This document shows, piece by piece, positions 1,276 to 2,194 of a stretch of 4,361 nucleotides of DNA. Each line of letters begins with the position of its first letter. The first letter of the stretch is position 1. The notes under the pieces were generated by a model. The model did no database searches, was not told the DNA's origin, and saw nothing but the letters and a program-made list of their open reading frames with translations. The stretch is from assembly GCF_003334335.1 (NCBI RefSeq), contig NZ_QOWQ01000079.1; one strand, 5' to 3'. The stretch is from Escherichia coli. GTDB taxonomy: Bacteria > Pseudomonadota > Gammaproteobacteria > Enterobacterales > Enterobacteriaceae. Both the position numbers and the translations under genes were made by a program.

Positions 1276-1541
1276 GCTGAAAAAGAAAACATCAGATGGT
1301 TAGTCGGGTATCAGTTATCTGGTGAAATTTTTAAATACCTCACAATTCAGGAAGGTGATTATTGTTTTTCTGGTGGGGAATTTGTTAAAAATCACTCCGC
1401 ATGATGAATCCCCCTAAGCGGTGGGGCGACTGGCAAGGCTCCATTACGATGGTCACAATCCGCAGATTTAGTTTGCCAGGCTGAATCTACCGGGAGGCAC
1501 CCGGCATCATGCATAATGTGGAAAATTGGAAATGTATTCAG

Positions 1542-1573
1542 GCCTCTACGAATTTTAGTAGAGGCTTTTTTTT
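1542..1573 (+). terminator. Strong intrinsic terminator (copy A)
   Basis: Perfect 8-bp stem GCCTCTAC/GTAGAGGC (1542-1549 / 1558-1565) with an 8-nt loop, followed by T8 (1566-1573). Confidence 0.8.
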
Positions 1574-1577
1574 GAGT

Positions 1578-1604
1578 AAAAAAAGCCCGTCTATGGCAGC
1601 GGGC
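1578..1604 (-). terminator. Intrinsic terminator for leftward transcription (copy A); with 1542-1573 forms a back-to-back bidirectional pair
   Basis: A7 (1578-1584) followed by hairpin GCCCG...CGGGC (1585-1589 / 1600-1604). On the - strand this reads as hairpin plus U7. Confidence 0.5.
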
Positions 1605-1954
1605 AAGTATGCATGAGAATACATTTTTTATTATTTGCCTGAAAATAGTACCCTGAGGTTATTGTTGTTTTCAACAGGCTGATTTGTGTTCTGATCGGGG
1701 ATGTGACAAGGAACATACGTTCTTATGTGAAAATGTTAAATTCTTCACATTTCAGTGAGTTGAGTGTTGATTTCGTTTTATCTTTTTTGTTAAAAAAGTA
1801 TTGCATGGTGAATCCCCCTGTGCGGTGGGGCGACTGGTGACAACAATTCATCATCCGTGATGACCCAGAAGAGATCGCGGGTTCAGTGGCACCGGGCTGA
1901 ACTCACCGGGAGGCACCCGGCACCATGTTCATGGTGATACAGAAATGCGGCTTC

Positions 1955-1980
1955 AGCCCCTCTCCGGAGGGGCTTTCTTA
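1955..1980 (+). terminator. Intrinsic terminator (copy B), with a weaker U-tract than copy A
   Basis: 8-bp stem AGCCCCTC/GAGGGGCT (1955-1962 / 1967-1974) with tetraloop TCCG, followed by TTCTTA. Confidence 0.55.
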
Positions 1981-1985
1981 TGGAC

Positions 1986-2013
1986 AAAAAAGCCCGCGCT
2001 GGGAGACGCGGGC
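1986..2013 (-). terminator. Intrinsic terminator for leftward transcription (copy B)
   Basis: A6 (1986-1991) followed by 7-bp hairpin GCCCGCG/CGCGGGC (1992-1998 / 2007-2013). On the - strand this reads as hairpin plus U6. Confidence 0.5.
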
Positions 2014-2194
2014 GGCAAGGAATAAACAATAAAACGTGAAGTAATATTTCAGCTGGCGAATAATACCCCATAGTAATCACTCTGCGCAACTGCGCGGCCT
2101 TTTTCGTATTGCGGGCTGTAGTCTCCCTTCTGCCATTGTCCTGTAACTTCCGGACTTCAGCTCGCTCCTTATCTGACTCACAACATTATCCCGA

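Follow-up and report, generated by a model that had tools for sequence, protein, structure and literature searches.

The 4,361-nt stretch of Escherichia coli DNA analyzed here (RefSeq assembly GCF_003334335.1, contig NZ_QOWQ01000079.1; hereafter the window) contains a cluster of three tRNA genes followed by nanS-p, a SASA-family esterase gene. In the ORF listing of the window, the 971-nt interval between them (1236-2206) has no open reading frame (ORF) longer than 68 aa, in agreement with a preliminary description, made from the sequence alone, which had seen about 970 bp without a credible ORF and, within it, two diverged tandem non-coding units. Analysis of this interval revealed two members of the STnc100 small RNA (sRNA) family on the plus strand, each facing a predicted convergent partner on the minus strand. 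The feature is therefore real and was correctly perceived, yet it is of a described kind.

The locus is the late region of a lambdoid prophage, as an earlier assignment to a cargo ("moron") hotspot had implied. In the prophage of strain DETEC-S792 the order is RusA, DUF1133, methylase, three tRNAs, the interval, esterase, DUF1378, DUF826, holin, lysozyme and terminase. Two complete E. coli chromosomes carry the interval at 100% identity (NZ_CP116067.1 788671-789641 and NZ_CP145707.1 1774677-1775647), with zero features annotated there in RefSeq; among 5426 complete E. coli genomes, only 6 contain it at ≥80% coverage.

Two STnc100 genes in tandem

The RNA family had been considered impossible to name from sequence alone, but an Rfam covariance-model search named it: both copies match STnc100 (RF02076; gathering score 47 bits) at full length, model positions 1-206, with 122.1 bits (E = 2e-27) for copy 1 (1369-1577, +) and 147.2 bits (E = 8e-34) for copy 2 (1773-1985, +). 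The R1 covariance model scored them at 116.7 and 119.7 bits, respectively. Both plus-strand copies are members of STnc100, a prophage-associated sRNA family of Gammaproteobacteria that was first described in Salmonella.

The displacement of 404-416 bp reported for the blocks of the two units was recovered in the direct repeats 1399-1433/1803-1837 (91% identity, offset 404) and 1476-1511/1892-1927 (86%, offset 416), as well as in the shared sequences TTTGTTAAAAA (at 1381 and 1786, offset 405) and AAAAAAGCCCG (at 1579 and 1986, offset 407). Unit-to-unit identity is 73% in the upstream/promoter segment, 87% in the 5′ core and 76% in the 3′ core, against values near background in the variable region (49%), 3′ linker (63%) and terminator (61%), which bears out the picture of conserved blocks separated by diverged spacers.

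The putative extended −10 box of both copies is carried by the conserved sequence TTGTTAAAAA, their −35 elements (TTGTTT and TTGATT) agree with the consensus at 4 of 6 positions, and helix P1 starts 7-8 nt downstream of the −10 box. The −10 box and this geometry are shared with PasD2 of enteropathogenic E. coli (EPEC), whose 5′ end has been mapped by RNA-seq and northern blot to the G of GCATGGTG (NC_011601 741157). We infer plus-strand 5′ ends near 1399 and 1803; in other genera, good TTGACA −35 elements lie about 35 nt upstream of P1. The RNA bodies, first drawn at 1401-1573 and 1805-1980, are better placed at about 1399-1575 and about 1803-1980. One terminator-ended RNA of about 175 nt per unit had been proposed, and this length finds its counterpart in PasD1 and PasD2, which measure 173 and 172 nt by RNA-seq and northern blot; the notion of a single-gene unit of about 405 nt did not hold, because each unit comprises two convergent genes (see below).

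The 3′ linkers (AUAAUGUGGAAAAUUGGAAAUGUAUUC in copy 1, UCAUGGUGAUACAGAAAUGCGGCUUC in copy 2) have no recognizable common sequence, and the variable hairpins differ too. In the copy 2 linker (window 1921-1937), the P1 5′ strand is repeated as CAUGGUG at 1931-1937, so that the P1 3′ strand is able to pair with either the 5′ end or the linker. The alternative hairpin between the P1 3′ strand and the linker is present in the copy 2 centroid fold and could compete with closure of the core.

Table 1. Features of the window, with coordinates, strand and basis
Feature	Coordinates	Strand	Parts or basis
Copy 1 upstream conserved block and inferred promoter	1322..1398	+	73% identical to 1725-1802; conserved in E. 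coli relatives
Copy 1 box0	1322-1350	+	
Copy 1 inferred promoter	1362-1391	+	−35 TTGTTT 1362-1367, 18-nt spacer, extended −10 TGT-TAAAAA 1383-1391
Copy 1 sRNA, about 177 nt	1399..1575	+	RF02076 match, terminator scan
Copy 1 helices		+	P1 1399-1406/1505-1512; P2 1411-1414/1423-1426; P3 1464-1472/1480-1488; P4 1490-1494/1500-1504
Copy 1 pseudoknot	1430-1436 with 1473-1479	+	
Copy 1 variable hairpin	1441-1444/1449-1452	+	
Copy 1 3′ linker	1513-1539	+	
Copy 1 terminator	1540-1575	+	
Copy 2 upstream conserved block and inferred promoter	1725..1802	+	aligned with 1321-1398; conserved in relatives
Copy 2 inferred promoter	1767-1796	+	−35 TTGATT 1767-1772, 18-nt spacer, extended −10 TGT-TAAAAA 1788-1796
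Copy 2 sRNA, about 178 nt	1803..1980	+	RF02076 match; positional orthologue of 933W copy
Copy 2 helices		+	P1 1803-1810/1921-1928; P2 1815-1818/1827-1830; P3 1879-1887/1896-1904; P4 1906-1910/1916-1920
Copy 2 pseudoknot	1834-1839 with 1890-1895	+	
Copy 2 variable hairpin	1848-1853/1858-1863	+	
Copy 2 3′ linker	1929-1954	+	
Copy 2 terminator, weak U tail	1955-1974	+	
Candidate short convergent sRNA, weakly AsxR/AgvB-like	1578..1638	−	terminator hairpin 1604-1585, T-run 1584-1578
Promoter-like site of 1638-1578 RNA	1645..1674	−	TTGAAA-18-TACTAT, consensus scan; start near 1638, RNA about 60 nt
Convergent sRNA, EcOnc42/EcOnc21/EcOnc08 family	1986..2166	−	93.9% identical to EPEC E2348C_1409.E2348C_1408.IGR; terminator 2013-1992, U-run 1991-1986, predicted seed CCUUGCC 2020-2014
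Promoter-like site of 2166-1986 sRNA	2185..2213	−	ATGTCA-17-GATAAT, consensus scan
DNA methyltransferase gene, 3′ part	7-945	+	
tRNA, anticodon CAT (RefSeq annotation: Ile), and tRNAs Arg-TCG and Arg-TCT	cluster 986-1235 (986-1061, 1069-1145, 1159-1235)		ARAGORN
Intrinsic terminator after tRNA cluster, upstream limit of sRNA region	1249..1274	+	hairpin 1249-1266, then T-run
Terminator-like hairpin just 5′ of nanS-p	2082..2105	+	terminator scan
nanS-p, SASA-family esterase, 660 aa	2207-4189	+	

A covarying core with a pseudoknot

Both copies can form helices P1-P4, with P1 closing around the P2, P3 and P4 hairpins, and the minimum free energy (MFE) fold of copy 1 is the family structure. Compensatory changes in P1 and P3 are found already among seven E. 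coli copies. A pattern scan with one genome per species yielded 50 loci, nearly all from Enterobacteriaceae and spread over about 15 genera, and a covariance model built on the E. coli copies yielded 94 cores in 53 loci. In a MAFFT alignment of 62 distinct cores, which is independent of the model, P1 contains 86 double-change cells, compared with 27 ± 4 after shuffling (0/500), and slid controls collapse. In the 86 distinct rows fitted to the covariance model, P1-P4 are 93.2% paired (45-49% in slid controls) with 389 double-change cells versus 113 ± 9 shuffled (0/500), and all nine pairs of P3 covary. Since this second alignment is fitted to the model, P3 was also examined by a register-free test, in which the helix formed from the fixed 3′ arm measured 6.98 bp with the sequence itself and 3.51 bp with dissimilar partners. 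Every helix thus tested shows compensatory changes, which supports the initial view that the conservation of the blocks reflects function.

A pseudoknot joins the strand just 3′ of P2 to the P3 loop. It pairs CUGGCAA with UUGCCAG in copy 1 and CUGGUG with CACCGG in copy 2, and the pairing partners elsewhere are UUUGAUCG:CGAUCAAA, GAACAAUCGA:UUGAUUGUUU and AAGCCACAG:UUGUGGCUU, or AAUGAUC:GAUCAUU in PasD. A column-based count gave a weaker signal (55.6% paired, peak at slide 0). As register shifts blur such a count, a register-free partner-permutation test was used, in which the mean best helix of the 86 sequences was 5.65 nt with their own partner versus 4.08 ± 0.10 nt with permuted partners (0/2000); a median of 86% of P3-loop nucleotides lie within the helix. 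The pseudoknot is absent from the RF02076 consensus structure line printed by cmscan and is not mentioned in the PasD/STnc100 preprint. The 5′ core fold is P1-P4 plus this pseudoknot, supported by covariation. A possible further contact of three bases, pairing GCG of the P2 loop with CGC of the junction before P3, was considered and set aside; the Stx phage 933W has GUG and CAC at these places (locus L001, 2579-2580 and 2626-2628), and this single double substitution is too little variation for a test.

Convergent partners, stx and tandem arrays

The minus-strand terminators, initially taken as part of one RNA module, are the 3′ ends of convergent minus-strand sRNA genes, which makes the repeated unit a two-gene dyad. 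Terminators stand back to back in both units, with 1540-1575 and 1955-1980 on the plus strand facing 1604-1578 and 2013-1986 on the minus strand. The scan located the terminator-like sites at 1540-1567 and 1955-1974 (+), among four such plus-strand sites in about 1 kb from the tRNAs to nanS-p, and at 2013-1992 (−); the minus-strand hairpin and T-run at 1604-1578 was read straight from the sequence and folds as a terminator.

The partner of copy 2 (2166-1986, −) is identical at 170 of 181 positions, without gaps and including seed and terminator, to the EPEC sRNA E2348C_1409.E2348C_1408.IGR, which was found by RIL-seq (sequencing of ligated interacting RNAs) and is itself convergent with an STnc100 copy. 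The EPEC RNA has the homologues EcOnc08, EcOnc21 and EcOnc42 and a target motif, GGCAAGG, that is complementary to CCUUGCC; EcOnc42 of enterohemorrhagic E. coli (EHEC) has been confirmed by northern blot and by Hfq cross-linking and analysis of cDNAs (Hfq-CRAC). The promoter-like site 2185..2213 lies about 12 nt upstream of the position aligned with the estimated EPEC 5′ end, and it overlaps the nanS-p start codon. Read on the minus strand, the hairpin at 2082-2105 is an internal hairpin of this EcOnc42-like sRNA.

The candidate partner of copy 1 (1638-1578, −) aligns partially, through its 3′ part, with AsxR of 933W. In 933W, STnc100 (L001 2530-2735, +, 207.7 bits) is followed directly by Rfam AsxR (2737-2789, −, 88 bits), and strain CEA601S has a pair like it. 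Tree et al. 2014 described the convergent pair EcOnc02 (= AsxR)/EcOnc27 3′ of stx2B and similar pairs in the Sakai prophages Sp3, 4, 9, 10, 11, 15 and 17. Each unit of the window is a convergent "sRNA dyad" of this type, here duplicated in tandem. As in the AsxR/EcOnc27 and AgvB/EcOnc06 dyads, an STnc100-type RNA on the plus strand and a minus-strand sRNA lie back to back in the span from the late promoter to the lysis genes. In contrast to those dyads, the arrangement is duplicated, the copy 2 partner is of the 181-nt EcOnc42/21/08 type (with eleven substitutions relative to its EPEC relative) and not an anti-sRNA of the AsxR/AgvB kind, defined by a length of 51-60 nt and about 42 nt of conserved 3′ sequence, and the copy 1 partner misses both the AsxR and AgvB thresholds.

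The preliminary description had placed the units in the slot where Stx phages carry stxAB. Window 835-1270 is 93% identical to 933W L001 722-1159, the tRNA region up to the terminator before stx2A, and terminator 1249..1274 falls in a region whose 933W homologue is the "terminator upstream of the stx genes". Window 1786-3253, from copy 2 into nanS-p, aligns colinearly (72.5%) with the dyad and esterase of 933W, which makes copy 2 the positional orthologue of the Stx-phage sRNA; copy 1 is 69.6% identical to the single 933W STnc100 copy. By these alignments, copy 1 and its partner sit where 933W has stx2AB, and of the two copies only copy 1 does, so this part of the placement stands. Replacement of stxAB does not, because 933W keeps its STnc100 copy between stx2B and nanS-p. 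The module is a neighbor of stx and not an alternative to it.

In O157:H7, the copy just 3′ of stx2B overlaps EcOnc27 (Sakai; detected by Hfq-CRAC and northern blot) and sRNA103 (EDL933). Single-nucleotide polymorphisms (SNPs) in the stx2-linked copy are among features predictive of hemolytic uremic syndrome (HUS). An STnc100 copy that lies 75 nt downstream of the stx2 operon has also been found in outer membrane vesicles (OMVs). With the 933W/Sp5 copy the window shares the helices, the putative extended −10 box, the position directly 5′ of nanS-p and the convergent-partner layout, but it has two tandem copies, a rare copy 1 allele and no stx genes, and its variable hairpin and 3′ linker differ.

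Zhu, Shabalina and Storz related STnc100 to PasD1 and PasD2 of EPEC E2348/69. These have the same locus type (Q ... sRNA ... nanS-p or holin), length class (172-173 nt), 5′ end sequence (GCAUGGUGAAUCC), P1, P2, P3 and pseudoknot as the window copies, but they fall below the STnc100 gathering score (41.4 and 37.7 bits), have lost the P4 hairpin and carry another linker and seed (UGUGAG). No blastn match to the PasD regions (L055 and L056) was found in the window outside nanS-p; the window copies are related to PasD only through the shared core fold. Adjacent paralogous Hfq sRNA genes, each with its own promoter and terminator and partly conserved, partly divergent, are known from OmrA/OmrB and PrrF1/PrrF2. 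Those, however, belong to the core genome and combine a conserved seed with a variable body, whereas the window pair conserves a large structured 5′ core and its most divergent parts include the likely seed.

Of the 5426 complete E. coli genomes, 11 have the copy 1 allele at full length and 820 have copy 2-type sequences. Arrays in several genera nevertheless indicate that tandem STnc100 is recurrent, though the copy 1 allele and the present arrangement are rare in E. coli. Prophages of the E. coli S19-651 type have three STnc100 copies between the tRNAs and the esterase; Leclercia and Superficieibacter loci (L016, L030, L038) have four cores within about 1-1.5 kb, L006 has three in tandem, and L037 and Klebsiella L048 have two. 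Pantoea and Enterobacter cancerogenus loci (L021, L040, L026) contain four abutting cores, and a stretch of about 1.8 kb includes one or two further ones. Full-length cores of Enterobacter cancerogenus and two Pantoea species (L026 7803-7186, −; L021 13512-12895, −; L040 12407-12771, +) abut with spacers of 11 and 20 nt, and no terminator-like site was found between the first three abutting cores. Clusters of tRNA genes typically have such spacing, which suggests multi-core transcripts here. The PasD/STnc100 preprint describes the PasA and PasD copies as dispersed and not tandem.

Ordinary phage tRNA genes occur within a few hundred bases of an STnc100 core at L014, L017, L033, L051 and L052. 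About 70 nt from a core, ARAGORN also reported odd tRNA-like genes whose anticodon has four bases, ctaa (L026 8727-8799, −; L040 11409-11481, +).

Function of the units and competing explanations

We consider it probable that the interval consists of four sRNA genes arranged as two tandem convergent dyads, the plus-strand members of which are likely Hfq-dependent, trans-acting sRNAs with different targets. Close relatives are expressed in lysogens, are Hfq-bound and form Hfq-dependent chimeras with many mRNAs. PasD1/2 in particular depend on Hfq for stability (northern blot), are among the most interaction-rich sRNAs in RIL-seq and have their seed UGUGAG in the single-stranded 3′ linker between core and terminator. 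Given the 49% identity of the variable regions and the 63% identity of linkers without common sequence, the two copies probably regulate different targets, and a Hfq-dependent trans-acting function with different target sets is, by analogy with these relatives, the most likely one.

A mechanism is proposed in which, in the lysogen, plus-strand sRNAs of about 175 nt (1399-1575 and 1803-1980) would each be made from their own extended −10 promoter and stopped at their own intrinsic terminator, as would the minus-strand sRNAs (1638-1578 and 2166-1986) that they face and that end back to back with them. P1, in which the 5′ end is paired, and the compact core with its pseudoknot may stabilize or protect the RNA, while the single-stranded 3′ linker, possibly with the variable hairpin, would base-pair on Hfq with host and prophage mRNAs. 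Upon induction, Q-modified polymerase from pR′ would override all four plus-strand terminators and go on to transcribe nanS-p and the lysis genes. As the origin of the tandem state, recombination of lambdoid prophages within the conserved core blocks is most likely.

Several observations weigh against this reading. A consensus promoter scan of the window flagged neither plus-strand promoter, because the −10 sequence TAAAAA lacks a T at position 6, and the U-tail of copy 2 is weak (UUUCUUAU). On the minus strand, 1580-1637 reaches only 20.7 bits with AsxR (RF02703; gathering score 63) and 15.9 bits with AgvB (RF02702; gathering score 56), so the partner of copy 1 stays a candidate; as the element after copy 2 has no AsxR or AgvB match at E ≤ 10, membership of these families was rejected for both minus-strand elements. 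The single-sequence MFE of copy 2 does not give the family fold, and folding z-scores are modest (−1.96 and −1.20), for which reason single-sequence thermodynamics was set aside and covariation was needed as evidence for structure. The literature contains no validated target for any STnc100 member, and sRNA103 overexpression merely raised fimZ and espA transcripts by an unclear route. Furthermore, cores in some genera abut without a promoter or terminator between them, and the core, whose 110 nt hold five helices, a pseudoknot and invariant loops that are kept from genus to genus, goes far beyond the needs of a base-pairing sRNA.

In the main competing explanation, the 5′ core (105-130 nt) is an autonomous folded domain that binds a protein, a ligand or an RNA, as a decoy, sponge or tRNA-like module and possibly with a junction built like that of a tRNA, and Hfq pairing is secondary or incidental. 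Its five covarying helices including the pseudoknot and its invariant junction and loop sequences persist in at least 15 enterobacterial genera, PasD retains P1, P2, P3 and the pseudoknot despite sequence drift below the Rfam threshold, and cores recurrently adjoin phage tRNA genes and are amplified in prophage arrays of four to five within about 1.5 kb. Some of these arrays have the head-to-tail spacing of tRNA clusters (11-20 nt), those of Enterobacter cancerogenus and Pantoea without a terminator-like site between the first three cores, and an internal hairpin varies between copies. We nevertheless regard this explanation as unlikely, given that the relatives are bound by Hfq, require it for stability and form mRNA chimeras via their 3′ part, and that PasD, in spite of its lost P4, is abundant in RIL-seq and active there. 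The core has no known partner protein or ligand, and neither ARAGORN nor the Rfam tRNA, tmRNA, riboswitch and ribozyme models match the copies; ARAGORN finds only the three tRNAs at 986-1235, and there is no Rfam tRNA-clan match at E ≤ 1 or E ≤ 10, so tRNA-likeness of the copies was rejected.

It is very improbable that the units are instead cis-acting parts of the late operon (terminators, insulators, or processing, antitermination, put-like or 6S/StxS-like elements) that, as a stack, gate read-through from pR′ to nanS-p and lysis genes, with the sRNAs as by-products. The four plus-strand terminator-like sites in about 1 kb and the position downstream of the Q/pR′ region would fit such a role, and with StxS there is already a case in which termination from a late promoter yields a functional by-product. 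However, the 5′ end of PasD lies at the start of P1, just 3′ of a −10 element, which indicates transcription independent of pR′. Other genera have good −35 elements, the family is not confined to the neighborhood of Q and lysis genes and can lie on either side of unrelated cargo, and covariation is found in the core and not in the terminators alone.

Hardly any credence can be given to the blocks being remnants of a small minus-strand coding gene or a duplication that is recent and neutral. It is true that short ORFs on the minus strand of blocks E1 and E2 match phrog_24488 (unknown function; E = 6e-6 to 4e-3) and that the element is annotated with hypothetical proteins or pseudogenes in some phage and RefSeq records. 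Yet when the ten ORFs of 31-68 aa were compared with PHROGs, only these fragmentary matches and one marginal match were obtained. The matches are fragments of 14-19 residues, and in copy 2 they are split over different ORFs and frames. Moreover, the distance between blocks ranges from 72 to 99 nt across the family without 3-nt periodicity, substitutions are compensatory for RNA helices, and segment identities of only 49-87% between the copies argue against a recent duplication. The antisense matches lie at 1395-1514, 1726-1854 and 1886-2089 (all −), and phrog_24488 may have been built from spurious ORF calls over this RNA gene.

One target within the prophage was considered. The invariant core sequence GAAUCCCCC (1404-1414, 1809-1825) is complementary to the ribosome-binding site (RBS) and start region of nanS-p, GGGAGGAUUCAUG (2191-2208; inverted repeats I2 and I8), and this RBS is conserved in 933W-type loci. 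The duplex energies (−26/−30 kcal/mol) are weaker than those of average 51-nt ORF windows (−36/−39 kcal/mol) and are indistinguishable from chance, and regulation of the nanS-p start through this sequence was rejected.

With the dyad reading, the naming of four sRNA genes corrects an "empty" 1-kb gap in the prophage late region. The STnc100 family and the lambdoid sRNA dyad are already known, and the window adds two further members in tandem dyads; new here are the family naming, the minus-strand partners, the corrected relation to stx and the covariation-supported pseudoknot. In EHEC and EPEC, STnc100/PasD RNAs and the sRNAs convergent with them are abundant clients of Hfq; they adjoin stx2, and variants of the stx2-linked copy are associated with HUS outcome. 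Two diverged paralogues at one locus amount to a natural experiment on the parts that set specificity. The pseudoknot and the multi-core arrays provide concrete structural hypotheses, open to testing, on a family that has hitherto passed for ordinary base-pairing sRNAs; if the core were autonomous, the Hfq and seed activity of the 3′ tail would be only part of its biology.

Two further RNA elements were observed in the surroundings. Downstream of the nanS-p stop codon, window 4190-4275 (−) contains a hairpin CCGCCAGC...GCUGGCGG followed by eight U, and the element is conserved at an equal position in 933W. It is likely a further convergent prophage sRNA; its similarity to PasA and Esr41 is merely loose (Esr41 23 bits; gathering score 102), and identity with either was rejected. 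The antitoxin RNA Sok (RF01794) and hokD lie a few kb upstream in the same prophages (L002 7313-7487, L004 1198-1373), which is consistent with the reported co-occurrence of Sok near Pas/STnc100 loci.

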